A DNA stretch of 64,000 nucleotides from an uncultured beta proteobacterium (GTDB taxonomy: Bacteria > Pseudomonadota > Gammaproteobacteria > Burkholderiales > Thiobacillaceae). The notes beneath the pieces were generated by a model. That model made no database searches. It was not told where the DNA came from and saw nothing but the letters and a program-made list of their open reading frames with translations. The translations under genes were made by a program, and so were the position numbers. The stretch covers positions 204,260 to 268,259 of the forward strand of contig CAWAJU010000005.1 of NCBI GenBank assembly GCA_963782495.1, written 5' to 3'. The stretch's first letter is position 1. Each line of letters begins with the position of its first letter. Positions 7,395 through 62,905 of the stretch are shown here, one piece after another.

Positions 7395-9452
<2,058 letters not shown>

Positions 9453-32089: not shown

Positions 32090-33246
32090 CAGAACGTCTT
32101 CCCGCGCATCATTTGTCGCTGCTCCCAGTCGATGCGCAGCAGGATCGACACTGCCATGCAGTTGGCGACGATGCCGCTGCCGCCGTAGGAAAGAAACGGC
32201 AGGGTCAGGCCCTTGGTGGGCAGCAAGCCCATGTTGACGCCCATGTTGATGCCGGCCTGCACGCCCAGCCAGATGCCGATCCCCTGGGCCACCAGGGCGC
32301 TGAAGTTGCGTTCCAGTTTGGCCGCGCGCAAGCCGATCATGAAAGCCTTGATGGTGAGCAGCACGAACAGGGCGATCACCGCTGCCACGCCAATGAAGCC
32401 CAATTCCTCGGCAATGATCGCGAGGAGAAAGTCGGTATGGGCTTCCGGCAGGTAGAACAACTTTTCCACGCTGCCACCCAGGCCCAGACCCAGCCACTCT
32501 CCCCGGCCGAACGCGATGAGGGCATGGGAGAGCTGGTAGCCACGGCCGTAGGGGTCATCAAACGGTCGCAAAAAACCCAGCATTCGTTCCATCCGGTAAG
32601 GCGAGATGACAATCAAGCCCGCAAAGCCCACCATCAGCACGCCTACCAGAGCGGCGAAAATCTTCCAGTTGAGTCCGCCCAGAAACAGGATGCCCATGGC
32701 AATGGCCACGATCACCACGAAGGCACCAAAGTCCGGTTCCAGCAACAGCAGGGCACCGGACAACATCATCACGCCGGCCATGGGCAGGAATCCCTTCTTG
32801 ATGTCATCCATGAACGCGGCCTTGCGGGTGGTGTAATCCGCCGCATAGATCACGGCAAAGAACTTCATCAATTCCGAAGGCTGCAGATTGGCGAAGCCCA
32901 GACCGATCCAGCGACGGCTGCCATTCACGACCTTGCCGATGTGCGGGATCAGCACCACCACTAGCAGCAGCAGACCGGAGAAGAATAGCCACGGCGCCAT
33001 TTGCTGCCAGGCCCGCATGGGGATCTGGAACACGGCCACCGCCATGGCGAGCGCCATCAAGGAATAGACCGCCTGACGCAGCAGAAAGTAATGGCCCTGG
33101 TGGCCGGTTTGACGCATGCCTTCAGCGGTGGCGATGGATGCGGAATAAATCATCACCAGGCCGATCACCAGCAGCGCAATGGTCAGCCACAGCAGACCGA
33201 AATCCAGTTCGGCGGTGGGCTTGAGTTTACGGGCGGAATAGATCAT
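32089..33246 (-). CDS. ftsW: Peptidoglycan glycosyltransferase FtsW (SEDS family)
   Basis: 385 aa, polytopic, with SEDS-like motifs. Position in the dcw cluster. Confidence 0.93.
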
Positions 33247-34643
33247 CAGCCCGCGTCCCCACCCAATGCGTGCACTGCAGCAACGAATACCTCGGCCCGA
33301 TGCAGATAACTGCGGAACATGTCGAAGCTGGCGCAGGCCGGCGAAAGCAATACGGCGTCACCTGGATGAGCCAGGCTGCGCGCGGCCTTGACCGCATCTT
33401 CCAGCGTATCGGCGGACACGACGGGGACAGCCACGCCCGCCAGTATTCTTCCAATCTCCGGACCATCGCGGCCGATCAGAATCACCGCCCGAGCATTGGC
33501 TTCCACCGCCTGTCTCAGGGGTGCAAAATCCTGGCCCTTGCCGTCACCGCCCAGAATCACCACGACCTTGCGTCCCATGCCATACATGGCCGCCTCGGTT
33601 GCGCCGACATTGGTGCCTTTGGAGTCGTCGTAGTAAGCGACGCCATCGATGTCTGCCACCCGCTCCATCCGGTGCGGCAGGCCCTTGAAATGGCGCAAGC
33701 CTTGCAAGGCTTGGGTTTCCGGCACGCCGATGGATGTGGCCAGGGCCAGGGCCGCCAGCGCATTCGCGACATTGTGCAAACCCGTGATGGGTATCTCGCT
33801 GACCGGCATCAGCTGCCGGGAGTCCTCACACAGTTCGCCTTCGCACACGCCGAAATGCCCGGCTGTCGGCAGTGTGTGTATGCCGAAGGTCACGCGCTTG
33901 CGATCCGGCCAGGCCATGGCCATTACCCGCGGATCTTCCCGGTTCAGTACTTGCACGCCGTTGCCCGAGAATATGCGCGCCTTGGCGGCCGCATAGCGTT
34001 CCAGGTTCGGGTAACGGTCCAGGTGATCTTCACTGACATTGAGGACCGTCGCCGCATCGGCGTTGAGGCTGGACGTGGTTTCGAGCTGGAAACTGGACAA
34101 CTCCAGCACCCACACCTGGGGCATAGCGATCTCGCCCACATCCACTTCCGTCAGTGCGTCCAGCACCGGCAAACCAATATTTCCCGCCACGCAGGTGCGC
34201 AAGCCGGCCGCTCTGCACATCTCGCCCACCAGGGCGGTGGTGGTGCTCTTGCCGTTCGACCCGGTAATGGCGACCACCTTCATCGTGTAGCCCGAGTTCT
34301 GGTTGAGGGCAAAGATGGCGCGTGCAAACAGTTCAACGTCGCCCAGGACTTCGATATCCCTCGCCCTCGCTCTTGCCACCGCCGGTTCCGCCAGCGACAG
34401 ACCGGGACTCAAGACCAGCAGATCGACTGCCTGCAGGATTTCATCCCGAAATGGACCGGTGTGAAGCGCGATATCGGGAAACTTCTCCTGCAGGATGCGG
34501 GCATGGGGCGGATGGGTCCGCGTGTCTGCCACGCTGACTACCGCTCCGCGCGCCACCAGCCAGCGCACACAGGACAGACCCGTATCCCCCAGTCCGAGGA
34601 CCAGGGCCTTCTTGCCGGAAAGTTGCAGGCAGTCGTAGTTCAT
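33246..34643 (-). CDS. murD: UDP-N-acetylmuramoylalanine--D-glutamate ligase
   Basis: ORF 33246..35321 trimmed to [24 protein letters not shown] (465 aa). Its ATG overlaps the mraY stop (ATGA). Confidence 0.95.
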
Positions 34644-35725
34644 CTCAGCTTCAACGTCGACAACCCAATCAGCACCAGCATCATGGAAATGATCCAAAAC
34701 CTGACCACGACCTGCGTCTCCTTCCAGCCCTTGAGCTCGTAGTGGTGATGTATGGGTGCCATGCGGAAGATGCGCTTGCCGGTCAGCTTGAAGCTGGCGA
34801 CCTGGATCATCACCGAGAGGGTTTCCATGACGAACACGCCGCCCATGATGAACAGCACGATCTCCTGCCGGACAATGACCGCAACCACGCCGAGTGCAGC
34901 ACCCAGCGCCAGGGCACCCACATCGCCCATGAACACCTCGGCCGGATACGCGTTGAACCAAAGGAAAGCCAGGCCGGCGCCGGCAATGGCGGCGCAGAAC
35001 ACGATCAGTTCGCCGGCCCCCGGAATGTGTGGGAGCCCAAGATATCTGGAGAACACCGCGTTGCCTGCAACGTAGGCGAAGATCCCCAAGGCCGATGCCA
35101 CCATGACCGTGGGAAGGATGGCGAGCCCGTCGAGGCCGTCGGTCAGGTTGACCGCATTGGATGAGCCGACGATGACGAAATAGGTCAGCACCAAAAAGCC
35201 CAGGGCGCCGAGCGGAATCGCCACGTGTTTGAAGAAGGGCACGATCAGCTCTGTCTGCGCCGGCAGATCGGTGGTGTACACAATCGCGAGCGCGGCGCCA
35301 ATGCCGAACACGGACTGCCACAGGTACTTCCAGCGTGCGATGAGTCCCTTGGGATTCTTGTGCACGATCTTCCTGAAATCGTCCACCCAGCCGATCGCAC
35401 CAAAGCCCAGGGTCGTCAGCAGCGCGATCCAGACATAGCGGCTGTGGAGATCCATCCAGAGCAGGGTGGCAATCGCCACCGAAACCAGGATCAGCGCACC
35501 GCCCATGGTCGGCGTGCCGGCCTTCACCAGATGGGTTTGCGGACCGTCATCGCGCACCGACTGGCCGAACTTCATGATCTTGAGCCGGTTGATCATCCAC
35601 GGACCGACCACAAAGGAAATGCTCATGGAGGTCAGCACTGCCAGCACCGCGCGCAGGGTCAGGTAATTGAAGACGTTGAATGCCCTGATGTTCTGACCGA
35701 CGGTTTGGAACAGCCATAGCAGCAT
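34640..35725 (-). CDS. mraY: Phospho-N-acetylmuramoyl-pentapeptide transferase
   Basis: 361 aa with a strong MraY match ([18 protein letters not shown]). Confidence 0.96.
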
Positions 35726-37089
35726 CAGAGAGCCCCTTGACCGACGAAACTGTCCACCACGCGCTCCATCTTCATGGCCCGGGACCCCTTCACCAGCACT
35801 GTCACGTCCGGCGCGAGTTCGTTTTCCAGATCCGCCAGCAACTCCTCGATGCGTTCGTAATGCAGCGCGCCGGCACCGAACGCCTGTACGCTCGACTTGG
35901 ACCAGTCGCCCAAAGCCAGCAGGCGATCCACTCCGGCCTGACGTGCCGCCAGGCCTACCTGGGCATGGAGCGCGGCGGATTCGTCGCCCAGTTCGCGCAT
36001 GTCGCCCAGTACCAGGATTTTTTTCCCAGGCCGCTGGGTCAGCACGGCGATTGCGGCTCTTACCGAATCGGGGTTGGCGTTGTAGGTGTCGTCGATAAAC
36101 AGCGCGCCATTATGACCAGCCTTGTTTTCGAGCCGCCCCTTGACGCCGGTAAAGCCGGCAAGGCCTTGTTCTATCGCGTGCAGACTCGCCCCCATGGCCA
36201 ACGCGCAGGCCGCCGCCGCCAGGGCATTGCGGGCGTTGTGCTCCCCGGCAAGCTGCAGACGAACCGACACTTCACCCTTGGGTGTATGGATGCTGAGCAT
36301 CTGGCCGCTTTGCTCGCCCGCGCTTTGCCCACGTACCTCGGCGCTGGCAGCGAAACCAAAGTCGACGACACGGCACGCTGTATTCATGCTGCGCCACTGG
36401 CCTGCATAAGGGTCATCGGCATTGATCACCGCCACGCCGTCTGACCGCAAACCCTGGTAGATCTCACCCTTGGCTTTTGCAATCGCATCGAGCGAGCCGA
36501 GCAAGCCCACATGCGCCGACTGGGCATTGTTAACCAGAGCGACGGTGGGCCGGGCAAGATGGGTCAGATAGGTCAGCTCGCCAAAATGGTTCATGCCCAT
36601 TTCCAGCACCGCGAACCGATGGCCGGATCGCAGGCGAAGCAGCGTCAGGGGGCAGCCGATGTCGTTGTTCAGATTGCCCTCGGTGGCGAGCACGCAGTTG
36701 GCGTCACCCGCTTCGGTCCGCAGTATGGCTGCAAGCATTTCCTTGACCGTTGTCTTGCCATTGCTGCCGGTGATGGCCGCCAGCGGAATTGAAAATTTCT
36801 GCCGCCAGTGGGCCGCCAACTTGCCCAAGGCGATACGGGTGTCTTCCACCACGATGGAGGGCTTGAGTTCGGGTGCGCCATAATGATTAAGTACCACCCC
36901 GGCCGCGCCCTTTGCCAGGGTGTCCGCGGCAAAGCGCGCGGCGTCGTAGGTCTCGCCCCGCAATGCAATGAATAGCTGCCCGCTGGCGATGGAACGGCTG
37001 TCGGTGGAAACCGAATCAAACTCCCCGTCCTCCCCGACCAAGTGGCTCCCCATGGCCTGAGCCGCTTCGGACAGACTCATCATGCTCAT
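35725..37089 (-). CDS. murF: UDP-N-acetylmuramoyl-tripeptide--D-alanyl-D-alanine ligase
   Basis: Start taken at ATG 37089 ([11 protein letters not shown]), with GGAGG 7 nt upstream. This ATG overlaps the TGA of the 74-codon mini-cistron. Mur ligase motif ITGSNGKTT. Confidence 0.92.
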
Positions 37090-37310
37090 GACCACACCTC
37101 CGACGGCGCACTCACGGTCTCTTGCCCCTCATGTGGCTGGAGGTGTTCATTCGCGGACGTGCGGATCCCCGCTGCGCGGGGCCCCTCCTTACTGCTCATG
37201 ACCACACCTCTGCCAGCGCCGCTCCCGGTGCAGAATCTCCATGTCGGTGTGCGGTGCTCATTCGCGGACGTGCGGATCCCCGCTGCGCGGGGCCCCTCCT
37301 TACTGCTCAT
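37086..37310 (-). CDS. 74-codon mini-cistron made of two 37-codon repeat units ([19 protein letters not shown]... twice)
   Basis: Its ATG 37310 overlaps the murE TGA (ATGA) and its TGA 37088-37086 overlaps the murF ATG (ATGA). It is the tail of track ORF 37086..37913. Confidence 0.4.
   Translation of the reverse strand: MSSKEGPRAAGIRTSANEHRTPTWRFCTGSGAGRGVVMSSKEGPRAAGIRTSANEHLQPHEGQETVSAPSEVWS
37147..37205 (-). repeat. Conserved repeat core (copy 3, murE-murF junction)
   Basis: tcattcgcggacgtgcggatccccgctgcgcggggcccctccttactgctcatgaccac. Same family as copies 1 and 2, with a different hairpin loop (CCCCGC-TGC-GCGGGG). Confidence 0.9.
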
Positions 37311-37316
37311 GACCAC
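37258..37316 (-). repeat. Conserved repeat core (copy 4, murE-murF junction)
   Basis: 59/59 identical to copy 3, 111 nt away. Contains the murE stop codon. Confidence 0.9.
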
Positions 37317-38746
37317 GCCCCCAGTGCCCGCATGGCGGCGTCCACATCGGAAAACGGGTGCCTTTCGCCGGCAACTTCCTGGTAATCCTCGTGACCCTTG
37401 CCGGCGATCAACACCACGTCCGCCGCGCGGGCCATACCCACCGCTTCGAAGATGGCGCGGGCCCGGTCGGGCTCGACCTTGTAGCCTGCCTTCATGCCTG
37501 GAGTGATGTCGTCGATGATGGCCAGCGGATCTTCGTGGCGCGGATTGTCGCTGGTCACGATTACGCTGTCTGCGCCTTCGCTGGCCGCCCGTCCCATGAG
37601 CGGCCGTTTGCCGCTGTCGCGGTTGCCGCCGCAGCCAAACACGCAGATCAACCGGCCCTGGGCGGAAGTCTTCCTTAAACTGGCCAGGACTTTTTCCAGC
37701 GCGTCGGGCGTATGCGCATAGTCCACCACGACCAGGGGTTGTGCTCCGCCCCCCAAAGTCTGCATACGGCCCGGCGGCGGAACAATTAGGGACAGAAGCT
37801 CGCAAGCCCGGGTCAGCGGCACCTCCGAGACCAGCAGTGTGGTCAGAACTGCAAGCACATTGCTGGCATTGAAGCGGCCCACCACCGGCGCCCGCAATTC
37901 TGTCTGCCCCCAATCCGAACGAATCCCGATGCGCAGGCCCAAGCGGTCGGCCTGGAGTATTTCGCCGATTACGGCGCCGCGTTCAAAGCCATAACCCGCG
38001 ATGTGCAGGCCCTTGATCTCGCGCTCAAGTTGACGGCCGAACTCGTCATCCAGATTGAGTACGGCATTGTTCAGGCCGGGCCAGTTGAACAGCCGGGCTT
38101 TGGCTGCCGCATAGGCATCCATGTTGCCGTGGTAATCAAGATGATCGCGCGACAGGTTGGTCAGGACGCCCACATTGAACTGGCAACCGACGGCGCGGCC
38201 CTGATCCAGACCGTGGGAAGAAACTTCCATGGCGCAGGCCCGCGCGCCGTCCTGGAGATAGCGCGCCAGGGCTTGTTGGAGTTCGATGGCATCCGGCGTG
38301 GTGTTGGCGCTGGGGCTCAAGCTGCCGGGGAAGCCGTTGCCCAATGTGCCCAGCAGGGCAGTCTTGCGTCCCTCGCGAGCAAGACATTGGGCAATCCAGT
38401 GGGCAACCGAGGTCTTTCCGTTGGTGCCCGTCACGCCGATCATGTGCAGGTGCTCGGAAGGCCGGCCGTAGACCTGACTGGCAATTTCGCCCACCCGGTT
38501 CCTCAAGTCCTCCACTCCGGCATTCGGCACAGACCACGCCGGGTCCCAGACATAGCCCTTCCTTTCCCACAATATTCCATCGGCACGGTTGGCAATCGCC
38601 TGGGAAATAAAATCCCGACCATCCAGACGAGTGCCGGGATAGGCAGCGAACACCAGACCCGGGCCCGCCTTGCGACTGTCCGCACTCAGCGCTCTGACGG
38701 AAGTGCCCAAACGATGCAGGATGTGTTCAGCCGATTCCATGCTCAT
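37307..38746 (-). CDS. murE: UDP-N-acetylmuramoyl-L-alanyl-D-glutamate--2,6-diaminopimelate ligase
   Basis: 479 aa. VTGTNGKTS motif and the DNPR motif (SDNPRHEDP). Confidence 0.95.
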   Translation of the reverse strand: MSMESAEHILHRLGTSVRALSADSRKAGPGLVFAAYPGTRLDGRDFISQAIANRADGILWERKGYVWDPAWSVPNAGVEDLRNRVGEIASQVYGRPSEHLHMIGVTGTNGKTSVAHWIAQCLAREGRKTALLGTLGNGFPGSLSPSANTTPDAIELQQALARYLQDGARACAMEVSSHGLDQGRAVGCQFNVGVLTNLSRDHLDYHGNMDAYAAAKARLFNWPGLNNAVLNLDDEFGRQLEREIKGLHIAGYGFERGAVIGEILQADRLGLRIGIRSDWGQTELRAPVVGRFNASNVLAVLTTLLVSEVPLTRACELLSLIVPPPGRMQTLGGGAQPLVVVDYAHTPDALEKVLASLRKTSAQGRLICVFGCGGNRDSGKRPLMGRAASEGADSVIVTSDNPRHEDPLAIIDDITPGMKAGYKVEPDRARAIFEAVGMARAADVVLIAGKGHEDYQEVAGERHPFSDVDAAMRALGAWS

Positions 38747-40482
38747 GCGGGATCGGAACGGGCAGGCAGTGCCGGTTCGGTTATCCGAGTGGCGGGCGGC
38801 TCGGATATATCGGGCGGTATGCCAAGCTGGCGCAAGGCGGCCGCCATCACCTGGGCAAACACCGGAGCCGCCACGGTACCGCCGTAATAAGCCGCGCCGG
38901 AAGGCTCATCGATCATCACGGCGATGATGAGACGCGGGTCGGAAGCGGGCGCCATCCCCACAAACGAGGCGATGTAACGATCCGGGGAATAATGGCCATC
39001 GATGGCTTTGTGCGCGGTCCCCGTCTTGCCCGCCACCCGGTAGCCGGGAATCCGGGCGAGTACTGCCGTGCCGCCTTCCTCGGTAACGGTTTCCATCATG
39101 TTGCGCACTGAGCGGGCGACTTCCACCGAGAGGACCCGTTCTCCGGTCATCTCATTGACTTCCCGCTTGAGGAAGGTCAGCGGCATCACCACGCCGTCAT
39201 TGGCGAAGGCCATATAGGCCCGCGCCAGCTGCAGCAGGCTTACGGAAATGCCATGGCCGTATGCCATGGTGGCCTGCTCGACCGGTCTCCATGTCTTCGG
39301 ATCACGCAGCCGGCCGGAAGCTTCCCCCGGGAATCCCGAGCCAGGAGTCTGGCCAAAGCCGGCACGATGCAAGGTGTCCCAAAACTGGTCAGGGGTAAGG
39401 CGCATGGCCATCTTTACTGCGCCGATGTTGCTGGACTTCTGCAGCACTTCGGTTACCGTGAGTTGGGGGTGATAGTGGTCATCCCTGATCAATTTGCCGC
39501 CCACCTTGTAGTCATCGGGCAAGTCCAGAACGGTATTGGGCCTGACCAGATTGCGCTCCAGCACGGCAGAGATGGTGAAGGGCTTCATGGTGGAACCGGG
39601 TTCAAAAGTATCCGTCACCACCCGGTTGCGCGCCTGCGCCGGGTCATACTGGTTACGGTTGTTGGGGTTGAATACCGGCAGATTGGACAGCGCAAGAATC
39701 TCTCCGGTCTTGGCATCCAGCATCACGATCCCGCCGCCTTTGGCCTTGTTGGCCAGCACTGCCGCGGCCAGTTCGCGATGGGCCAGATACTGCAGCTTCA
39801 GATCGAGTGACAAAGCCAGATTGCCGCCCATCTGGGCGCCGCGTCCGGGACTGATATCGGCTACCAGTTGCCCACGGTTGTCCTTCAGGACATGCCGCGA
39901 ACCCGGCTTGCCGGAGAGCCAGTCGTCGTATGCGCGTTCCACACCTTCGCGTCCGACATCATCGACATTGGTGAAGCCCACCACGTGTGCCGTCACCTCC
40001 CCTTCTGGATAGAAACGACGAAACTCCCGATGCAGACTCAAGCCTGGCCAGCCCAGTGCCGCAATGCGTGCGGCCTGTGCCGGACTAAGCGTACGATCGA
40101 TTGCCACCTCGCCGGTCCGCTCGGTGTGCAGCTTCCTGCCCAAGTCTTTGCTTTGGAGATCAAGAATGCGGGCCAGTTCACTTATTTGCCGTTGGCTGAT
40201 TTCCGCCGTTTCGTCGGGTCGGGCCCAGAGCGCCTCCACCGGTGTGCTGATCGCCAGAGGCTTGCCGTAGCGGTCCACCACCATGCCGCGATGGGCGGGG
40301 ATGGACAACACCCGGGAAGCCACCGCATCACCCTTGCCGCGCAGGAAATTCTTGTTCAAGCCCTGCAAATAAACGGCGCGGACGACCAGAATGGCAAACC
40401 AACCCAGCAGCAATCCCGCCACCAAGGCCATACGCCAGGACGCCAGATGCAGTTTGAGCAGGCGCCTGCTGGAATAATTCAA
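38743..40482 (-). CDS. ftsI: Peptidoglycan D,D-transpeptidase FtsI (PBP3)
   Basis: 579 aa. N-terminal TM helix plus STMK, SSN and KTGT motifs. Confidence 0.93.
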   Translation of the reverse strand: MNYSSRRLLKLHLASWRMALVAGLLLGWFAILVVRAVYLQGLNKNFLRGKGDAVASRVLSIPAHRGMVVDRYGKPLAISTPVEALWARPDETAEISQRQISELARILDLQSKDLGRKLHTERTGEVAIDRTLSPAQAARIAALGWPGLSLHREFRRFYPEGEVTAHVVGFTNVDDVGREGVERAYDDWLSGKPGSRHVLKDNRGQLVADISPGRGAQMGGNLALSLDLKLQYLAHRELAAAVLANKAKGGGIVMLDAKTGEILALSNLPVFNPNNRNQYDPAQARNRVVTDTFEPGSTMKPFTISAVLERNLVRPNTVLDLPDDYKVGGKLIRDDHYHPQLTVTEVLQKSSNIGAVKMAMRLTPDQFWDTLHRAGFGQTPGSGFPGEASGRLRDPKTWRPVEQATMAYGHGISVSLLQLARAYMAFANDGVVMPLTFLKREVNEMTGERVLSVEVARSVRNMMETVTEEGGTAVLARIPGYRVAGKTGTAHKAIDGHYSPDRYIASFVGMAPASDPRLIIAVMIDEPSGAAYYGGTVAAPVFAQVMAAALRQLGIPPDISEPPATRITEPALPARSDPA

Positions 40483-42328: not shown

Positions 42329-42376
42329 AATCCGAACATCAAATTATATCTACAACATATTGAATTTATGTGAATT

Positions 42377-42694
42377 GGATGAGTCAACCTGTAAGCCGGG
42401 TTCTGTCATGGACAGTCATTCCTCTAGACCTGCCATCGCTGGCGGGTTCAAGCCACCTACCCGCAGACTCAGCGAGCCGCTTCGTCGCCTGCCTATTTGG
42501 TGTTGCTCCGGATGGAGGTTGCCGCGTTTCACCCTTTGTAATAGTGCCGCGATAAACTGCGGTAATCGCAAAGACTCGTCTCTGTGGCCCTGTTCCTCGC
42601 CTCGCGGCGTACGGCCGTTAGCCGTCATCCTGCTCTGCGGAGCCCGGACTTTCCTCTGCCGGCGTATCGTCGGCAGCGACTGTCCAGTCAACTC
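42377..42694 (-). ncRNA. rnpB: RNase P RNA (bacterial type A)
   Basis: Minus strand reads GAGTTGACTGGACAGTCGCTGCCG...GAGGAAAGTCCGGGCTCC...GGGTGAAA...ACAGAACCCGGCTTACAGGTTGACTC. This matches the universally conserved RNase P blocks and P1 pairing. The two ORFs called here are artefacts. Confidence 0.85.
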
Positions 42695-42810
42695 ACCCAC
42701 ATTTATTATAGGGTTGATTAATGGAATGCGATTAGCTAATGATAAGTATGGGGCCGATGCGATGACTCCTAGTTGACTTTCTCGGACACACAAAAATAGG
42801 AGAATTCAAA

Positions 42811-53479: not shown

Positions 53480-54784
53480 CTATTCAACCCGGTTGAGCAG
53501 GTCCAGAGCGGTCGTCGCCATCAGCTGCATCTGCTCCCCGTCGACAATATAGGGGGGCATGAAGTAGACCGCATTGCCTATGGGCCGCATCAACACCCCG
53601 AGGTCCAGGGCCTGCAGGTGCCAGCGTAGCGAGAAGCCGGGTTGCGCATCCTTTACATCGAATGCCCAAATCATGCCCAGATGGCGGAAGAAGCTTACCC
53701 GCGGATGGGCTGACACCTCTGCCAGCAGTTCCTGGAAGATCGCCGCTTTGGCCCGGTTGGCGTCCAATACCTGGTCCGATTCGAATATGTCCAGCACTGC
53801 GCACGCTGCGCGGCAAGCCAGCGGGTTGCCGGTATAGGAATGGGAATGGAGAAAGCCTCTGGCGGTTGCGTCCCCGTAGAACGCGGCATAGATATCATCC
53901 GTAGTCTGCACACAGGACAAGGGCAGATAGCCCCCAGTGATGCCCTTGGACAGGCAGAGAAAGTCGGGGCGGACGTTTGCCTGTTCGCAGGCAAACAAGG
54001 TGCCGGTGCGGCCAAACCCAACCGCGATTTCATCGGCAATCAGATGGACCTGGTAGCGATCGCAAATTTCCCGTGCCCGGCCCAGGTAGATCGGGTGATA
54101 CATGGCCATCCCGGCGGCACCCTGGACCAAGGGTTCGAGGATTAAGGCTGCGGTGTCGTTTGCGCGCTCCGCAAGACAGACTTCCAAGGCGTTGGCTGCT
54201 CTCAGGGCGTAGGCGTCAGCGGATTCCCCCGTCTCGGCGCCTCGGAAATCCGGCGTTGGCACTTGCCGGGTGCGCCGCAACAGAGGCGCGTAAACGTCCC
54301 TGAACAAGGCCACGTCGGTGACGGACAGGGCGCCCACGGTTTCCCCGTGATAACCGTTCTTCAGGCTGATAAAGCCAATCTTGTCCGGCTTGCCGACGTT
54401 GCGCCAATAGTGAAAACTCATCTTCAGCGCGATTTCGGTCGCGCATGCGCCATCCGAGGCAAAGAACGCATGGCCCAGGCCGCTCAGCTGCGCAAGCCGC
54501 TCCGACAATTCCACTGCTGGCGGGTGCGTGCAGCCTGCGAGCATGACATGCTCGATTTTGCCGAGTTGGTCGACCAGAGCCGCATTGATGCGCGGATTGG
54601 CATGGCCGAACAGATTGACCCACCAACTGGAAATCGCATCGAGATAGCGCCTGCCCGATTCATCGATAAGCCACGCGCCCTCGCCCCGAACTATCGCCAG
54701 AGGGGGCGTTGATTCGAGCGCTTTCATCTGGGTGCAGGGATGCCAGAGAAACTGGCGCGAACGGGCCTGAAGCAAGCTGGGCAT
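53480..54784 (-). CDS. bioA: Adenosylmethionine-8-amino-7-oxononanoate aminotransferase
   Basis: ORF 53480..54934 trimmed to MPSLLQARSRQFLWHPCTQMK. Class-III aminotransferase with LSKGITGGYLPLS (PLP lysine). Confidence 0.9.
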   Translation of the reverse strand: MPSLLQARSRQFLWHPCTQMKALESTPPLAIVRGEGAWLIDESGRRYLDAISSWWVNLFGHANPRINAALVDQLGKIEHVMLAGCTHPPAVELSERLAQLSGLGHAFFASDGACATEIALKMSFHYWRNVGKPDKIGFISLKNGYHGETVGALSVTDVALFRDVYAPLLRRTRQVPTPDFRGAETGESADAYALRAANALEVCLAERANDTAALILEPLVQGAAGMAMYHPIYLGRAREICDRYQVHLIADEIAVGFGRTGTLFACEQANVRPDFLCLSKGITGGYLPLSCVQTTDDIYAAFYGDATARGFLHSHSYTGNPLACRAACAVLDIFESDQVLDANRAKAAIFQELLAEVSAHPRVSFFRHLGMIWAFDVKDAQPGFSLRWHLQALDLGVLMRPIGNAVYFMPPYIVDGEQMQLMATTALDLLNRVE

Positions 54785-55224
54785 GGATGCAAGCAAAACT
54801 GATACGCAGACCCCATTGTATTCGCCCTGGCGCGAGGAACTCACAACTGGAGACACCGCACAACCCGGTCCCAAGTGGAAAACCGCCGCCGTTCGTCGGC
54901 GCATTGTAAAGCGAATTAACCGGAAAAACGCCAAGCTCTTCGTCGGCTTTCCGCCAAGCTTGATGGCGCACTGTCGGCAGTGACTTCTTCTCCCTCTGTT
55001 TCACGCCGGTCCGTACGCGTTTCGATCTGCGCCGCGTATTGATTTTCAAACGTTTTCTTGCCGCCTCAACCAGATGGGCAAAACGCTTGCCGCGGACCCG
55101 TTTTCAATCTTTAAAGACACCCTTTTATCTTGTTCACAACCCCGGGTTTTCTGGCACGGAAATCTTGTTCAAGTCATGAATATCACGGTCGATAACTCCG
55201 GTAGGCAATAACAAAAAACCTGAA

Positions 55225-56667
55225 ATGCAAATCCCGGTTGCCCTGTCCTCGCAGTACCTGCCCAGGTCGCAGACTCTGGCGACCACTGACGCCCTTTGTA
55301 CTGCGTTGTCCGCCGAACAGTATCTGCAGCTGCAGGCTGAGGTATTGGGTCGCGGCCAATTTGCCGAGGCGGCAACCGCACTCGCCCAGCAACTTGCCTG
55401 CAGACTGGCTTGCGATCGAGTCAGTATCGGCTGGCTCAGCCGCCATGGAATGCTTGTAGCGGCGACCTCCTATGTAGCAGAATTACACGTGCGTCAGGAA
55501 ACCGCCCGGCTGGTCGGCGCTGCAATGGATGAGGCGGCCGAGCAGGGCAGCGCCCTGATCCACCCCGAGCCGGAAGGCGGCAAGCCTCGAATTCGGCTGG
55601 CCCATGAGGAATTGGCACGGCGCCAAGGCTATGCGCTGTGCACCGTCCCTTTAGTTCACGGCGGGACCGTGGTCGGCGCTTTCACGCTGGAACGCCGGGA
55701 GGGGTGCTTCAGCGTTGAAGAAGGGATGCTTTACGAACATCTCGCCTGCATGCTGGCGCCTGTCCTCGCACTCAAACACGAGAACGACCTTTCGCTCTGG
55801 CAACGCGGCCTGATCGCCGCCAAGATCCGCCTGCGCTGGGGTACCGGCACAGCAGTAAGCAAGCCGCACATTTTCGGGCTTACTGCGGGCTTTGCTCTGC
55901 TCGCTTTCATCGCACTGTTCCCCTTTACCTATAGCGTCAGCGCGCCAGCGCGCCTCGAAGGCGCGTTCCAGCGAGTATTGTCCGCGCCCACTGATGGCTT
56001 CTTGAGCAAGGTCTACGTGCGCCCCGGCGATCGGGTGAAAGCCGGACAGATGCTGGCCGAACTGGCCGATCAGGACCTGCTGGTCGAGCAACGCGGCTTG
56101 CAAGCCGAGCTGGCCCAGAACGAAAACGCGCTGGTTGCCGCACAGGCCAAGGGAGATCGAGCCGAATACGGCATCAACCAAGGCAAGGCCGAGGCGGCAC
56201 AGGCCAAGTTGGAACTGATCCAGCAACAACTGGAACGTGCGCATGTGCGCGCGCCATTTGACGGCGTGATTATCAAGGGCGACCTGAGCCAGTCGGTCGG
56301 GGCTCCGCTGGAGCGCGGTGCCGAGCTCCTCACGCTGGCTCCGGACACTGGCTACCGGGTGATGATCGAAGCGGAAGAGAGCGAAGTGGCCGAACTGAAG
56401 CCCGGCCAGAGCGGCCGCTTAATCCTCGCGGCCATGCCTGTCCAAACCATGCCGATCCGATTGGAGCGGATCACTTCACTTGCGACCACGGAGAATGGCC
56501 GGCATTACTTTGCCGTGTATGCAGCCCTGGACTGCAGGCAGCCCGGCCTGCGCCCGGGCATGCAGGGCGTGGCCAGGATAGCGGTGGACCGGCGCCCCAT
56601 GCTGATGAACTGGCTCACGCGCAGTTTCAGTTGGTTGCGCTTCAAGCTCTGGTCCTGGGGCGCCTGA
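55225..56667 (+). CDS. GAF-domain / transmembrane / HlyD-like periplasmic adaptor protein
   Basis: 480 aa. N-terminal about 190 aa is GAF-like (VSIGWLS...ALCTVPLVHGGTVVGAFTLER). One TM helix (IFGLTAGFALLAFIALFPF). Then a lipoyl/coiled-coil/beta-barrel pattern typical of the HlyD/MFP family (GFLSKVYVRPGDRVKAGQMLAEL, VRAPFDGVI). Confidence 0.75.
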   Translation: MQIPVALSSQYLPRSQTLATTDALCTALSAEQYLQLQAEVLGRGQFAEAATALAQQLACRLACDRVSIGWLSRHGMLVAATSYVAELHVRQETARLVGAAMDEAAEQGSALIHPEPEGGKPRIRLAHEELARRQGYALCTVPLVHGGTVVGAFTLERREGCFSVEEGMLYEHLACMLAPVLALKHENDLSLWQRGLIAAKIRLRWGTGTAVSKPHIFGLTAGFALLAFIALFPFTYSVSAPARLEGAFQRVLSAPTDGFLSKVYVRPGDRVKAGQMLAELADQDLLVEQRGLQAELAQNENALVAAQAKGDRAEYGINQGKAEAAQAKLELIQQQLERAHVRAPFDGVIIKGDLSQSVGAPLERGAELLTLAPDTGYRVMIEAEESEVAELKPGQSGRLILAAMPVQTMPIRLERITSLATTENGRHYFAVYAALDCRQPGLRPGMQGVARIAVDRRPMLMNWLTRSFSWLRFKLWSWGA

Positions 56668-56668
56668 C

Positions 56669-58819
56669 ATGGCAACGGATTCACTGTTCAGCCCCAACTG
56701 GTATCGGGTTTGCGCCTTGCATCCGCAACTGGGCGGGCATGTCCGGGTCCAGCGTCAACCCAGCCGCGACCGCCAATGGTATGTGCTCATCGATGGCGCA
56801 AGCGGCCGTCAGCATCGGGTCAATGACCTTGCCTACCAGTTTGTCGGGCGTTGCAATGGCCGCTACAACGCGCAGCAGATCTGGGAAAGCCTGTTCGAAA
56901 CCCTGGCCGATGATACTCCCACCCAGGATGAGATCGTCCGTCTGATCGGCCAGTTGGTTGAAGCTGGTTTACTGCAAGTGGAAAAACAGTCGGATGTGGA
57001 AGCCTTGTTCGAACGCCATCAGGAACGCGCCGGCAGGATTCGCCGCAGCGCCCTCAACCCCCTGTCGTTCCGTATCCCCTTGTTCAACCCGGCTTCACTG
57101 CTGCAACGCCTTGATGGTGTCGCCCAGCAGATCTTCAGCCCCTGGGTGCTTTGGCTGTGGCTGGTCATCATGGGCATTGCACTGATGACGGCATTTGCCC
57201 ACTGGAATGAACTGCGCGCCCAAGCTGCCACCACCATGCTGACGCCGCGCTATCTCATCCTGCTGTGGCTGTGTTTTCCGCTCATCAAGGCGTTGCATGA
57301 ACTGGCTCATGGTCTGGCGGTTCGCCGCTGGGGCGGCGAGGTCACGCAGATGGGTGTGGCCCTGCTACTCCTGGTGCCTGCGCCCTACGTCGACGCGTCG
57401 GCGGCCTCGGCCTTCCGTCCAGCCTACCAGCGGGTCATGGTGAGCGCGGCCGGAATCATGACCGAGTTGCTGCTTGCCGCCTTAGCCCTAATGGTCTGGC
57501 TCAATGTCGAGCCTGGCCTGGTACGTGACATCGCCTTCGTCTTCCTGTTCATCGGTAGCGTCTCGACCGTGCTGTTCAACGGCAATCCGCTGCTGCGCTT
57601 TGATGGCTATTACATGTTGAGCGACGCGCTCAATCTGCCCAACCTGGCCACACGCAGCAGCCGTTACTGGGCCTACCTGGCGCAACGCTATCTGCTCAAG
57701 CTACCCGATCCGGCATCTGTCGAGCCCGGCCACGGGGAGCGCTTCTGGCTCTTGCTCTACGCGCCCCTGGCGTGGGCTTACCGACTGCTCATCAGCCTGG
57801 TGATCGCATTCTGGATCGCTTCAAAATCCGCCCTTCTGGGGCTGGCTGTGGGCCTGTACATGCTCCACGGCAGTCTGGCAAAACCGATTTACCGCGTGTT
57901 GCACTTCGCCTTCTTCTCCCCAAGCTTGGGCAACCGGCGCCTGCAAGCCCGAGCCCTCGCGTCTGCGACCCTGGTCCTGGCGGTCGTGGCGCTGGCGGCC
58001 TTGCCCATACCTTCCAACACTACCGCTGAAGGCGTGGTCTGGCTGCCGGAAAAGGCTCAATTGCGCGCCGAGACCGGCGGCTTCGTAGTCAAACTACTGG
58101 CCCGCGACGGCGAGCGCGTGCGGACCGGTCAACTGATCGCCGTTCTGGAAGATCCCACCCTGATCACCCAGCAGCAGGATCTGCAAAGCCAGTATGACGC
58201 CTTGCGCACCGAATATTTCGAATCCCTGCTGAGCAATCCGCTGAAAGCCAGGAACGCCGACCAGGCGCTGCAGAAAATCCGACCGGAACTCGAGCGTAGC
58301 GAGGACAAGCTCGCGCAACTCAAGGTGCGCGCCCAAACCGACGGCACCCTCGTCATGCCCGGACAGCAGGACCTGCCGGGCGTGTTCGTGAAGCAGGGCG
58401 CCCTGCTCGGCTATGTGTTCAGTCCCGATCAGGTGAGGGTACGCGCAGTGGTCGACGAAAAGGATATTGCCTTGGTTCGCAAGCGCACGCGGGCAGTCGA
58501 TGTACTGCTGGCAGAAAACGCCCGGCAGCCTCTGCGCGCCAGCCTCGCGCAAGAGACCCCGGCAGCCACGCACACCCTGCCCAGTCCCGCGCTCGGCGAC
58601 CGGGCAGGCGGCAGCCAGATTACCGATCCCACTGACCAGGACGGCGTGCAAACCCTGGAGCCGGTATTTCTGGTGGACCTGTTACTGCCGCGCGATGCCA
58701 CGCGTCGCGTGGGTGGGCGCGCCTGGGTGCATTTCGACCATGGCACCGAACCGCTTGCTCTGCAATGGGGCCGCCGTCTCCGGCAGCTCTTCCTCAAGCA
58801 TTTCGACCAAGCGGCTTGA
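56669..58819 (+). CDS. PqqD-like (RRE) domain / M50 site-2-protease-like membrane metalloprotease / HlyD-like domain fusion
   Basis: 716 aa, starting 2 nt after the upstream stop. N-terminal WYVLIDGASGRQHRVNDLAYQFVGRCNGRYNAQQIWESL...LVEAGLL is PqqD-like. HELAHG (HExxH) in a TM helix plus NGNPLLRFDGYY (M50 second motif). C-terminal GFVVKLLARDGERVRTGQLIAVLED plus a coiled coil is HlyD-like. Confidence 0.75.
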   Translation: MATDSLFSPNWYRVCALHPQLGGHVRVQRQPSRDRQWYVLIDGASGRQHRVNDLAYQFVGRCNGRYNAQQIWESLFETLADDTPTQDEIVRLIGQLVEAGLLQVEKQSDVEALFERHQERAGRIRRSALNPLSFRIPLFNPASLLQRLDGVAQQIFSPWVLWLWLVIMGIALMTAFAHWNELRAQAATTMLTPRYLILLWLCFPLIKALHELAHGLAVRRWGGEVTQMGVALLLLVPAPYVDASAASAFRPAYQRVMVSAAGIMTELLLAALALMVWLNVEPGLVRDIAFVFLFIGSVSTVLFNGNPLLRFDGYYMLSDALNLPNLATRSSRYWAYLAQRYLLKLPDPASVEPGHGERFWLLLYAPLAWAYRLLISLVIAFWIASKSALLGLAVGLYMLHGSLAKPIYRVLHFAFFSPSLGNRRLQARALASATLVLAVVALAALPIPSNTTAEGVVWLPEKAQLRAETGGFVVKLLARDGERVRTGQLIAVLEDPTLITQQQDLQSQYDALRTEYFESLLSNPLKARNADQALQKIRPELERSEDKLAQLKVRAQTDGTLVMPGQQDLPGVFVKQGALLGYVFSPDQVRVRAVVDEKDIALVRKRTRAVDVLLAENARQPLRASLAQETPAATHTLPSPALGDRAGGSQITDPTDQDGVQTLEPVFLVDLLLPRDATRRVGGRAWVHFDHGTEPLALQWGRRLRQLFLKHFDQAA

Positions 58820-60819: not shown

Positions 60820-62895
60820 ATGATGTATCGATTGTTCCGCGGTTATCTTCCCAAGGCGGTCAATCCGCAGTTCTATCTCACCCGCATGCTGCGCCGCATG
60901 GATCCGCTACGCGCAGCATCCGAGCTGTTACGTTCAGCTTTGAATGTCCTGACAGACGACCTGCTGATCGTCGACACCCAGGGCCGCGTGGTGTTGGCGA
61001 ACCGGCGATTTGCCGATCTGCTGGGCCAGACTCGGCAAACCCTGATCGGGCAGTCGCTCGATACCCTGGCATGGCAGGACAGCCATGGGGAGCCACTTGG
61101 CGCTGGCACCTATCCATGGGAAATCGCGCTCCAGCGGGGCGCTACGACGCGCCTCAACAGGTTATGGCTGACCGATAGTCACGGCGTACGCCGCGCCTTC
61201 CTGGCCAATTGTTCGCCCCTTCCCGTGGGCGACGGCAAGTGCGGGGGCGCCATGATTTCGCTGGATGAGATTGCCGGACTTGACGCAGACAAGATCGAAC
61301 CGCATCGCCCGGTGCATAAAGTCGATGGCGGGACCTACGCCGCAAGCCTGGCCCTGGCCGACACGGCCCATGAGATCCGTTCGTCCCTCAACGCGACGCT
61401 GGGCTTTACCGAGTTGCTGCGCCGCGGCCAGTTCAAGGACGACGCTGACTACCGGTGCCACCTAGATATCGTTCACTCCAGCAGCAGGCATTTGCTGGAA
61501 CTTGTCAACGGCATTCTGGACATTTCCAGTGCGGAATCTGGCGCGTTGGAGGTGAAACTGGGCGACTGCGCACCGTACCGGATTGCGCACGAAGTCGTGC
61601 AAGCCGAGAGCGTCAGGGCTTGCGGAAGGCGCGCGTCCATTGAACTGGTCTGCCCCGGTTCGATTCCCGCATGTATCCAGAGCGACCCGGCGCGCCTGCA
61701 CCAGATTGTCGGCCATCTCGTCCGCCATGTGACCGCGTATTCAAGCGGGGGCGACGTCAAGCTTGTCCTGCGCTTCATCGCGGCGCGTCCTCAGGCACAG
61801 CTTCTGTTCGAAATCAGCAGCAACGAGACAGCAGAAGGCAAGCCGAAAACCCCGATTGAACCGTCAATCCAGGCTGGCCTGGCAACGGCCAGGCGCTTGG
61901 GCGGCGCCGGCCTGGGACTGACACTGAGCCTTCGACTAGCCCGCGCCATCGGTGCTGAACTGGTCATGAGACGCGTCCCTGGCGTTGCCCGAACCTTTGT
62001 GCTCAAGCTGCCCGCCGGCCCGATTGAAGCCATCAGGCTGATCACTCCGGAACAGGCGGCGAGCCAGCAGGGCGGCGCGAATCCGGCGGTTGGTTCACAC
62101 TGGAAACTTTCCCCCGCGCGCGTGCTGATTGTGGATGACGCTCCCGAAAACCGCGAACTGGTGCGCCTGGTCATGGAGGATGCGGGAGCCGTGACCGAAC
62201 AGGCGGAAAACGGCCTCACCGCGGTGGAAAAGGCGCGATCCCGACACTACGACCTCATTCTCATGGATCTGCATATGCCCGGCGCGGATGGCGCCACCGC
62301 AACTCGCCTGCTGCGTCAATATGGCCTGAAGGCACCCATCGTGGCGCTGACCGCGCACTCCTTGAAGAACCTGGAACAGGAGCTTATTGATGCTGGTTTC
62401 ACGGCCTATCTCGCCAAGCCGATAGAAATAGACCGATTGTTGGCCACCGACGCCTCGCTGGTCGGTGGCACCCGTGTTTGCCAGCCGCTTAACAAGCTCG
62501 CTGCGCTGCCGATTAAACCCGTATACGGCAGCAACCTGCCGCAACTGCCCATCGTGTCGCGCCTGGCAGGCAACCCGCGCCTGCAAGCCGCGATCAACAA
62601 ATTTCTTGCCCGCCTTGGCGGCCAGCTAAGCGCGATTGAACTGGCCTGGCAGGCCCGCGATTTCGAGACACTCGCCAGCCTGGCGCACTGGCTAAAGGGA
62701 GCGGGGGGCACAGTGGGGTTCGATTCGTTCAACGAGCCCGCCAAGAGATTGGAACAGCTGTCCAAAACAAAACAGGCGGACGACATGGAGGAAGTGCTAA
62801 TGGAATTGAAGGACATATCTGCACGCATTGTGCGGCCACAGGTCGCGGCCAGTACTTCAACCCCGGGTCCCGAGCAGACACGGGTCAAGCCCTAG
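60820..62895 (+). CDS. Hybrid sensor histidine kinase (PAS - HisKA - HATPase - REC - HPt)
   Basis: 691 aa. PAS-like N-terminus, H-box AHEIRSSLNATLGF, G-box GGAGLGLTLS, receiver VLIVDDAPENRE...LMDLHMPGADG, and a C-terminal HPt-like segment (LAHWLKGAGGTVG). Confidence 0.88.
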   Translation: MMYRLFRGYLPKAVNPQFYLTRMLRRMDPLRAASELLRSALNVLTDDLLIVDTQGRVVLANRRFADLLGQTRQTLIGQSLDTLAWQDSHGEPLGAGTYPWEIALQRGATTRLNRLWLTDSHGVRRAFLANCSPLPVGDGKCGGAMISLDEIAGLDADKIEPHRPVHKVDGGTYAASLALADTAHEIRSSLNATLGFTELLRRGQFKDDADYRCHLDIVHSSSRHLLELVNGILDISSAESGALEVKLGDCAPYRIAHEVVQAESVRACGRRASIELVCPGSIPACIQSDPARLHQIVGHLVRHVTAYSSGGDVKLVLRFIAARPQAQLLFEISSNETAEGKPKTPIEPSIQAGLATARRLGGAGLGLTLSLRLARAIGAELVMRRVPGVARTFVLKLPAGPIEAIRLITPEQAASQQGGANPAVGSHWKLSPARVLIVDDAPENRELVRLVMEDAGAVTEQAENGLTAVEKARSRHYDLILMDLHMPGADGATATRLLRQYGLKAPIVALTAHSLKNLEQELIDAGFTAYLAKPIEIDRLLATDASLVGGTRVCQPLNKLAALPIKPVYGSNLPQLPIVSRLAGNPRLQAAINKFLARLGGQLSAIELAWQARDFETLASLAHWLKGAGGTVGFDSFNEPAKRLEQLSKTKQADDMEEVLMELKDISARIVRPQVAASTSTPGPEQTRVKP

Positions 62896-62905
62896 CGAGT
62901 TTTCC

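Follow-up and report, generated by a model that had tools for sequence, protein, structure and literature searches.

What could a leader-binding domain do when it is joined, in a single polypeptide, to an intramembrane protease and a periplasmic adaptor? This question is raised by an open reading frame (ORF) of 716 amino acids (aa) from an uncultured beta proteobacterium of the Thiobacillaceae (GenBank assembly GCA_963782495.1, contig CAWAJU010000005.1, positions 204,260 to 268,259); this whole stretch of 64,000 nt is referred to below as the window. A preliminary description of the ORF had proposed a PqqD-like domain, related to the recognition elements (RREs) of peptides that are synthesized on the ribosome and modified post-translationally (RiPPs), fused to an M50 protease and an HlyD-type domain, and had reasoned that this architecture implies a peptide substrate. 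In this study, we found that the ORF belongs to a conserved gene cassette with its GAF-HlyD and SecA-like neighbours, a grouping that the preliminary description had passed over, and that the cassette is coupled to genes for giant proteins with an N-terminal LEPR-XLL leader. We consider the chance slightly better than even that the 716-aa protein is an RRE-guided leader peptidase inside an apparatus of the tripartite type by which LEPR-XLL giant adhesins are exported.

Domain Architecture and Predicted Topology of the 716-aa Protein

The fusion of PqqD, M50 and HlyD domains was borne out by Pfam, by a family profile, by invariant residues, by an AlphaFold2 (AF2) model and by Foldseek. The motifs quoted in the preliminary description were found where it had placed them: the RRE segment runs from W37 (WYVLIDGASG...) to its close at ...GLL102, HELAH occupies residues 210-214 in a predicted transmembrane (TM) helix, NGNPLLRFDG occupies residues 304-313 in the second M50 zinc motif region (NGNPLLRFDGYYML, residues 304-317), and the last ~270 aa are the adaptor. 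In Pfam, PqqD (PF05402) matched residues 38-102 with 23.9 bits, just over the gathering cut-off of 23.4, and Peptidase_M50 (PF02163) matched residues 202-277 with 23.5 bits, under its gathering cut-off of 27.2 despite E=4e-5. The adaptor domain scored 33.4 bits with HlyD_D23 (cut-off 30) and 29.4 bits with HlyD_3 (cut-off 22.2). Among 69 homologues at 48-81% identity, PqqD was detected in 58 (best 3.3e-11), Peptidase_M50 in 60 (E<=1e-3, best 3e-8) and HlyD_D23 in 68. The PqqD and M50 scores are marginal when taken singly, but they are not due to chance because they were reproducible across these homologues. H210, E211 and H214 of the HExxH motif, together with N304, N306, P307, F311 and D312 of NGNPLLRFDG, were invariant across the 69 sequences. 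The family profile also matched the PqqD crystal structure 3g2b over positions 17-102 (E=1.9e-5) and adaptors of the MacA/MexA kind, with 4dk1 at E=3e-9.

The best family match was NF041824 (daptide_HExxH), which spanned the RRE and the M50 core (residues 36-399) with E=3e-44 and 151.7 bits against a cut-off of 300. The argument that a PqqD-like domain implies a leader-bearing substrate therefore has a direct precedent in the daptide peptidase MpaP. The gene context of the 716-aa protein held neither daptide decarboxylase or methyltransferase genes nor Thr-terminated short precursors. As the score was half of the cut-off and the daptide gene context was lacking, the protein is best classified, from sequence comparison, as a homologue and not a member of this daptide metalloprotease equivalog. 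The M50 core also matched YydH/LiaK (E=6.7e-8), and NHLM_micro_HlyD gave a weak match. An upstream gene considered as a daptide-type aminotransferase (53480-54934, minus strand) was rejected, as it is BioA (TIGR00508, 521.7 bits, cut-off 405). A class-III aminotransferase also stands beside the Methylosinus cassette (L180 15459-16517, minus strand). The enzyme is encoded on the strand opposite to the cassette and is not kept from locus to locus; the adjacency, which recalls daptide clusters, is probably a coincidence.

The AF2 model of the 716-aa protein had a mean predicted local distance difference test score (pLDDT) of 84.5 and a predicted template modelling score (pTM) of 0.63. Its N-domain (residues 25-98, pLDDT 80-91) contained strands 25-32, 35-42 and 48-52 and helices 53-59, 68-82 and 86-98, and by this modelled secondary-structure layout it appears to be a three-strand/three-helix winged helix; a low-confidence linker follows it. 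Seven long helices were predicted (158-177, 193-220, 252-279, 284-304, 357-384, 388-416 and 418-444), with HELAH in helix 193-220 and NGNPLLRFDG at the end of helix 284-304. Right behind the HExxH helix, a re-entrant beta-hairpin (228-241; strands 228-233 and 236-241) resembling that of site-2 proteases was read from the AF2 secondary structure only. Foldseek with the full model returned adaptor matches only (MexA/AcrA/MacA at E=6e-12 to 1e-9; MexA 1vf7 at E=6e-12) and no independent fold support for the M50 or RRE parts, and when the isolated M50 core was compared with PDB sequences by phmmer, no match appeared even at E<=10. Because the model has an odd number of TM helices and the loops show a positive-inside bias (8 vs 4, stronger with helix ends counted), we infer an N-in/C-out topology, in which the RRE and both zinc motifs would lie on the cytoplasmic side and the adaptor in the periplasm. 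This agrees with the cytoplasmic RRE and periplasmic HlyD part that the preliminary description had assumed.

Coupling of the Cassette to LEPR-XLL Giant Proteins

The preliminary description had looked to a small RiPP-type precursor with a Gly-Gly or NHLP/Nif11 leader. This idea found no support, since no small conserved ORF, modifying enzymes or peptidase-containing ATP-binding cassette (ABC) exporter (PCAT) or other ABC exporter accompanied the family, and a giant LEPR-XLL protein co-occurred instead. Its remark that no obvious precursor gene is adjacent holds for small ORFs inside the window, whereas the gene of the likely substrate begins just past the window end, at window-equivalent 65667. 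The giants adjoining the cassette are cadherin/Ig-repeat proteins of 1,000 to >12,000 aa. The one on the window's contig combines DUF4347 with cadherin/Big_9 repeats and starts MNPVADFRRRPLIEELEPRLLFSADFAP.... The leader consensus lies within the first ~25 residues and consists of Met, ~10-15 mostly basic residues and P-[LV]-[IVL]-E-E-L-E-P-R-[IL]-L-[FY]-S-A-D, as in the form RRRP-L-I-E-E-L-E-P-R-I-L-F-S-A-D; NF012209 (LEPR-XLL) scored 20.9, 19.4 and 19.8 bits in three cassette-linked proteins (cut-off 17).

The leader pattern was widened to take in variants such as EPMEPRLLYSAD and TLEPRVLLNAD, with the controls still at 0. In the forward direction, 45 of 99 loci carried the motif at the head of an ORF of 200 aa or more, exactly one in each and on the cassette strand in 44 of the 45, while the reversed-translation control gave 0 matches in 1.59 Mb x 6 frames. 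When loci at >=43% identity with at least 6 kb of downstream sequence were considered, the motif was present in 31 of 33. In the reverse direction, the cassette was found in 29 of the 44 LEPR-DUF4347 loci with at least 7 kb upstream, and several of the remaining loci were extra copies in cassette-bearing genomes or contigs, often with a small adaptor of their own. Leaderless DUF4347 proteins (cyanobacteria, Burkholderia, Nitrincola) had the cassette in 5 of 14 cases. The passengers behind the leader vary (DUF4347, DUF7948-SBBP, LamG, Ig and, in one case, no Pfam match), so that the cassette is tracked by the leader and not by the passenger. The genomic coupling of the cassette to LEPR-XLL giants thus runs both ways.

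At positions that had not been selected on, conservation was also seen among 95 unique leaders, of which 93% carried E at -3, 72% L at -1 and 84% D at +8; Met stood a median 15 residues upstream of the motif, and no hydrophobic segment was present in these leaders. AF2 predicted the first ~60 residues of the leader-bearing protein to be disordered. Being non-hydrophobic and predicted to be disordered, the leader is no Sec signal. In Candidatus Thiodiazotropha, in Sulfurovum and in several metagenome-assembled genomes of Gammaproteobacteria, the M50-HlyD fusion, the small adaptor and the LEPR giant are present without a SecA-like gene (Table 1). Because these lineages retain the M50, small adaptor and LEPR genes, the link between the M50 protein and the leader is the tightest of all; the motor is either dispensable there or supplied in trans.

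The DUF4347 domain, which comes behind the LEPR leader on the window's contig (in L021 18999-21416, equal to window-equivalent 65667-68084; an L021 coordinate is the window coordinate - 46668), has an invariant His (HIISHG) and an invariant Cys (LYGCD). Its AF2 model (pLDDT 86) resembles legumain and caspases (Foldseek E~2e-5 for both) and also the Pseudomonas aeruginosa type VI secretion effector Tce1 (9qpe_G). As modelled, the domain has the appearance of a clan-CD cysteine-peptidase fold, and it may act as a self-processing module within the giant adhesins. Frame changes break giant genes and one SecA-like gene on metagenome contigs (L021 21416/21418; L178 15105-15260 and 12417-14145), leaving the LEPR leader out of frame with the body; the probable cause is faulty assembly and not true pseudogene formation. 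A cluster of recurrent small ORFs with a CPxCG motif was rejected, as it comprised antisense ORFs over the small adaptor gene.

Coupling in the Distant Clade

Loci below 43% identity formed a distant clade, in which LEPR genes were present in 5 of 27 loci at the first count. This apparent absence is partly an artefact, because the flanks were 10 kb whereas the giant gene is upstream and 26-38 kb long. An extra DUF3467 gene of ~105 aa, not found in the window's clade, stands just upstream of GAF-HlyD in 18 distant loci, between the giant gene and the cassette, and could be a chaperone or adaptor. In at least 10 of the 24 distant loci scored as having no LEPR gene, a giant open frame runs in across the upstream border of the 10-kb flank and stops just before DUF3467. 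On a plasmid of Methylosinus sp. C49, the order is a 26.5-kb giant gene, DUF3467, GAF-adaptor, a 'PqqD family protein', SecA-like, small adaptor and a TolC family protein. In Pontibrevibacter, the same cassette comes after a 31.8-kb gene, to which the annotation pipeline PGAP gave the name 'LEPR-XLL domain-containing protein', and in Pseudosulfitobacter the cassette comes after a 38.2-kb gene; the N-termini of the giants read ...FDTLEPRVLLNAD in Methylosinus and ...LETFEPRVLLSAD in Pseudosulfitobacter. With LEPR giants on these annotated distant plasmids, the coupling therefore covers the whole family. In Planctomycetes (L137, L145: Rubripirellula, Planctomycetaceae), a divergent cassette was found near LEPR-DUF4347 proteins on the opposite strand, with identities of ~40% for the SecA-like protein, ~30% for the small adaptor and 25-27% for the M50-type protein.

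Cassette Composition and Family Size

A word-indexed search returned >5,000 relatives of the 716-aa protein, nearly all of 709-738 aa and with full coverage. An exhaustive search returned 12,451 clusters of 50% identity at E<=1e-3 and 3,900 at E<=1e-30, and nearly all of the best 150 clusters were ~715 aa long and matched over full length; at least 597 loci were confirmed by a pattern scan of species-representative genomes. The cassette occurs in Beta-, Gamma-, Alpha- and Deltaproteobacteria, Myxococcota, Nitrospira, Methylomirabilia, Acidobacteriota, Campylobacterota and Planctomycetes. Source labels for the 716-aa family are inconsistent ('putative peptide zinc metalloprotease protein', 'PqqD family peptide modification chaperone', 'biotin/lipoyl-binding protein' and 'efflux RND transporter periplasmic adaptor subunit'), and NCBIfam release 20 contained no system-specific models for the four core cassette proteins.

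For counts of the cassette genes, 98 related loci were used, with each component scored only where the contig was long enough. GAF-HlyD lay immediately upstream of the M50 gene in 85 of 86 evaluable loci and the SecA-like gene immediately downstream in 77 of 84, and a small adaptor of ~285 aa with a signal peptide and a TIGR01730 score above cut-off was present in 53 of 73. In the window, the cassette genes are packed tightly on a single strand, and 1 nt separates the GAF-HlyD stop from the ATG of the 716-aa ORF. GAF-HlyD matched GAF (residues 48-167), HlyD_3 and HlyD_D23 in Pfam and RND_mfp (TIGR01730) with 95.6 bits against a cut-off of 94.9.

The SecA-like protein matched SecA_DEAD (1.8e-84), SecA_PP_bind (2e-21) and P-loop_SecA (2e-45) in Pfam, where neither SecA_SW (wing/scaffold) nor SEC-C was matched; Walker-type GEGKT and DEAD motifs were visible in the alignment. 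It aligned to Bacillus subtilis SecA over 46-597 only, with an N-terminal extension of ~75 aa, and scored 498 with TIGR00963 (cut-off 800) and 431 with the SecA2 family TIGR04221 (cut-off 725). Because a complete housekeeping SecA is encoded in the same window, the cassette protein is a second, truncated paralogue. RefSeq names for the SecA-like protein vary between 'prepilin peptidase', 'DEAD/DEAH box helicase' and 'translocase' (L180 11213-13129; L183 22130-24115; L182 22138-24120). The Methylosinus protein labelled 'prepilin peptidase', the sole mislabelled copy run through Pfam, matched SecA_DEAD (1e-103), the preprotein cross-linking domain and the P-loop domain.

In a relative with 69% identity, the SecA-like gene is succeeded at once by the genes of the small adaptor and the giant, and in relatives the hybrid kinase lies behind the giant genes or is absent; the window's genome carries its kinase and cyclic di-GMP (c-di-GMP) genes between the SecA-like gene and the small adaptor. 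Judged from gene order, the hybrid kinase and REC-GGDEF-EAL genes are lineage-specific insertions within the operon, outside the conserved core, and the kinase is probably regulatory. Genes of c-di-GMP signalling (REC-GGDEF-EAL, HD-GYP, cNMP-GGDEF, PilZ) and hybrid kinases recur near the cassette (window 60820-64000, plus strand; L178 3618-7642; L179 1502-1819 and 14132-15961), and BLAST found GGDEF/EAL nearby in ~16 of 101 loci. A TolC gene was near the cassette in 2 of 101 loci and in the Methylosinus cluster, and none was in the window. No genes of an ABC transporter or type-1 secretion system (T1SS) were seen in any inspected annotated neighbourhood of the cassette, and no riboswitch or other Rfam element was found near the operon.

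Features of the Window and Related Loci

The coordinates are collected in Table 1. Elsewhere in the window, a thiamine pyrophosphate riboswitch (9354-9451, minus strand) lies upstream of thiC (7395-9326), and an RNase P RNA (42376-42695, minus strand) and the mur/ftsI cell-wall (dcw) gene cluster (33246-40482, minus strand) are present.

Table 1. Features of the cassette region, in window coordinates unless a locus is named.
Feature	Position	Strand	Basis or remark
GAF-HlyD (480 aa), first cassette gene: cytoplasmic GAF, one TM segment (~216-234), periplasmic adaptor domain	55225..56667	+	Pfam, NCBIfam, hydropathy
716-aa fusion of PqqD/RRE, M50 intramembrane metalloprotease and HlyD adaptor	56669..58819	+	ATG at 56669, stop ends 58819
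PqqD/RRE-like winged-helix domain, predicted cytoplasmic, residues ~17-102	56717..56974	+	Pfam PqqD, 3g2b profile match, AF2
M50 (site-2-protease-type) core, residues 158-444, 7 predicted TM helices	57140..58000	+	Pfam, NCBIfam, invariant residues, AF2, loop charges
HELAH, residues 210-214, within M50 core	57296-57310	+	
NGNPLLRFDG, residues 304-313, within M50 core	57578-57607	+	
HlyD/MexA-type adaptor domain, predicted periplasmic, residues 445-716: lipoyl/barrel-sandwich, alpha-hairpin 496-549, beta-barrel	58001..58816	+	Pfam, Foldseek, profile
SecA-like ATPase (662 aa): nucleotide-binding domain (NBD) 1 (DEAD), preprotein cross-linking domain, NBD2, start of scaffold helix	58828..60816	+	Pfam, SecA alignment
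Hybrid histidine kinase (PAS-HisKA-HATPase-REC-Hpt)	60820..62895	+	Pfam
REC-GGDEF-EAL protein (612 aa), runs past window end	62906..64000	+	
Small secreted adaptor, outside window	window-equivalent 64746-65609		same contig, after REC-GGDEF-EAL
LEPR-XLL/DUF4347 giant protein, outside window	starts window-equivalent 65667		same contig, 1.7 kb beyond window end
Housekeeping SecA (904 aa): DEAD, preprotein cross-linking domain, P-loop, wing/scaffold, SEC-C	17530-20244	-	same window
Loci without SecA-like gene	L114 (=L031), L124, L128, L132, L135, L142, L150, L155, L163, L164		
DUF3467 gene, examples	L045 3329-3634, L072 1924-2241, L081 7695-8027, L087 7688-8056, L180 6735-7055		13 more loci

Proposed Mechanism and Alternative Explanations

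Considering the architecture and the coupling together, we have proposed a model for the export of LEPR-XLL giants, with the 716-aa protein as its putative central component in the inner membrane. The cytoplasmic PqqD/RRE domain would capture the leader of a nascent or unfolded giant, as RREs do with RiPP leaders; from its homology, binding of the leader by this domain of the 716-aa protein is what we infer. The M50 site, predicted to open to the cytoplasmic face of the membrane, would then cut off the leader, in parallel with daptide MpaP; the scissile bond would be expected directly behind ...SAD or in the variable linker beyond it. The fused adaptor, GAF-HlyD and the small secreted adaptor would form a periplasm-spanning, TolC-docking conduit of the tripartite or type-1 kind. 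The truncated SecA paralogue, which has kept the ATPase and the preprotein clamp, would push the substrate on its presumed route across the inner membrane and would replace the type-1 ABC transporter, and the GAF domain and the often-adjacent c-di-GMP enzymes may gate the process.

Several points weigh against this model. Apart from the architecture, all of it is drawn from gene neighbourhood and homology, and the Pfam M50 score of the window's sequence, slightly below the gathering threshold, marks a divergent member of that family. No cassette component is obviously an inner-membrane protein-conducting channel. The SecA-like protein is, by its alignment, without the two-helix finger/wing region that engages SecY, and its absence from ~8% of loci means that it is not universally essential. 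TolC is rarely encoded in cis, although it may be supplied in trans, and ~14 of the 24 distant loci counted as having no LEPR gene show no giant gene within +/-10 kb. Finally, a separate T1SS may export the giants, this adhesin class being classic type-1 cargo.

A bolder reading takes the cassette (GAF-HlyD, RRE-M50-HlyD, truncated SecA and small adaptor, with or without DUF3467 and TolC) as an unrecognised diderm secretion pathway, with LEPR-XLL as its dedicated N-terminal signal for the largest known bacterial proteins (8,000-12,000 aa). We hold this tentatively and rate its chance at about one in three. In such a pathway, the place of the type-1 ABC transporter would be taken by a motor of the SecA type together with an intramembrane leader peptidase guided by its RRE. 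Classic type-1 substrates, with their signals at the C-terminus, include giant cadherin/Ig-repeat adhesins, and the passengers here, with their cadherin, Big_9, Ig and tandem-95 repeats, are typical of such adhesins. In the main alternative, an ordinary T1SS encoded elsewhere might export the giant C-terminus-first, with the RRE holding the N-terminal leader, the last part to emerge, at the inner membrane, the M50 site cutting it so as to release or mature the adhesin and GAF/c-di-GMP exerting control, so that the cassette would serve retention and release, or quality control, as LapD/LapG do on LapA. The recurrence of GGDEF/EAL, HD-GYP, PilZ and cNMP-GGDEF genes nearby, the GAF sensor built into the cassette, the lack of an evident channel-forming component and the dispensability of the SecA-like gene in some lineages all suit this explanation. 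It is nevertheless unlikely in our view: tethering and cutting would call for less than three separate adaptors, a SecA-type motor and, in some loci, TolC, ABC/T1SS genes were seen in none of the inspected neighbourhoods, and the leader is of a cytoplasmic type at the extreme N-terminus, like the leaders of bacteriocin-type export.

The remaining two explanations suit the neighbourhood data poorly. Maturation and export of a small RiPP or bacteriocin, with its precursor elsewhere in the genome, would be in keeping with the RRE-M50 homology to daptide MpaP and YydH/LiaK, with the HlyD-type adaptors of bacteriocin exporters (the weak NHLM_micro_HlyD match) and with the class-III aminotransferase that adjoins the cassette. 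Yet ~180 loci were without a conserved small ORF, modifying enzymes or an ABC/PCAT exporter, the giant LEPR-XLL protein was the only recurrent leader-bearing gene, the NF041824 score was half of the family cut-off (151.7 vs 300), and the aminotransferase is BioA, on the opposite strand and kept only in close Thiobacillus relatives, which together make this explanation very improbable. We give still less credence to site-2-protease signalling, in which an anti-sigma factor or a membrane regulator would undergo regulated intramembrane proteolysis, with the HlyD part as periplasmic sensor and the kinase and c-di-GMP genes as output. M50 membership, the re-entrant beta-hairpin and the hybrid kinase and REC-GGDEF-EAL genes adjacent in the window speak for it. 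However, those two genes are lineage-specific insertions, sigma/anti-sigma genes stood beside the cassette in none of the inspected loci, the RRE and the adaptor occupy the place of the PDZ domains typical of RseP-type site-2 proteases, and the SecA-like gene, the extra adaptors and the LEPR giants would be left unexplained.

Significance

LEPR-XLL proteins are among the largest bacterial proteins and are without a recognisable Sec signal, and their route to the surface is not explained in the literature searched; the present analysis links them to one conserved machine and one recognition domain. The open-access and bioRxiv literature that was searched contained no description of the cassette and mentioned DUF4347, LEPR-XLL and DUF3467 only incidentally; a 2026 preprint on giant proteins proved to be unrelated to the cassette. 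If the export model is true, RRE domains extend from small-peptide natural products to protein secretion, and a SecA paralogue would have its first role in Gram-negative bacteria. The cassette genes are at present scattered under misleading annotation names, and RRE-keyed genome mining for RiPPs is likely to report members of this very large family as RiPP clusters, which would be false positives. Culturable hosts of the cassette include Piscinibacter sakaiensis 201-F6, Marinobacterium mangrovicola (DSM 27697), Methylosinus sp. C49 and Pseudomonas sp. MMS21.

Comparison With Known Systems

Daptide precursors carry the leader motif ELExMEAP, and their leader is removed by MpaP, an intramembrane peptidase that is RRE-dependent (Ren et al., bioRxiv 10.1101/2023.03.08.531785). 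Like the 716-aa protein, MpaP/DapP (NF041824) joins an N-terminal PqqD/RRE to an M50 site-2-protease core, but it is without the C-terminal adaptor domain. The daptide motif ELExMEAP and the cassette motif EELEPRxL are both of a short acidic-Leu-acidic...Pro form, a likeness at the sequence level that may serve as a lead only. In Actinobacteria and Bacilli, the daptide substrates are peptides of ~25 residues that are encoded together with genes for a decarboxylase, an aminotransferase and a methyltransferase. In contrast, the partners of the cassette are a SecA paralogue and adaptors, the leader-bearing proteins have 1,000 to >12,000 aa, and the hosts are Gram-negative lineages.

The type-1 and tripartite systems (HlyBD-TolC, MacAB-TolC, PCAT) share with the cassette the lipoyl/beta-barrel/alpha-hairpin adaptors, an occasional TolC and giant repeat adhesins as cargo, and PCAT exporters, with their N-terminal C39 leader peptidase, share its logic of leader removal coupled to export. 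The cassette differs from them in having no transporter of the ABC, RND (resistance-nodulation-division) or MFS (major facilitator superfamily) type, an M50 and not a C39 peptidase, a SecA-paralogue ATPase, three different adaptor-type proteins of which one is fused to the protease, and an N-terminal signal as opposed to the C-terminal signals of the RTX (repeats-in-toxin) type. SecA2 systems of Gram-positives and mycobacteria likewise have a second, shorter SecA besides the housekeeping copy and special substrates, often large adhesins; unlike them, the cassette has a SecA-like protein far under the SecA2 cut-offs with the whole wing/scaffold region gone, no SecY2/Asp proteins, and diderm hosts with adaptors and an M50 protease. 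In LapA/LapG/LapD, which is likened here by description, the N-terminus of a giant repeat adhesin is also targeted by a dedicated protease with c-di-GMP-linked regulation nearby, but LapG is a periplasmic cysteine protease, LapD is a GGDEF-EAL receptor, and the system is without an RRE, an M50 protease, a SecA paralogue or extra adaptors. No precedent was found for the C-terminal adaptor fusion, for the two extra adaptors with a SecA paralogue, or for leader proteins of 1,000-12,000 aa. We regard the cassette as a combination of two known kinds, the RRE-dependent M50 leader peptidase and the adaptors of tripartite systems.

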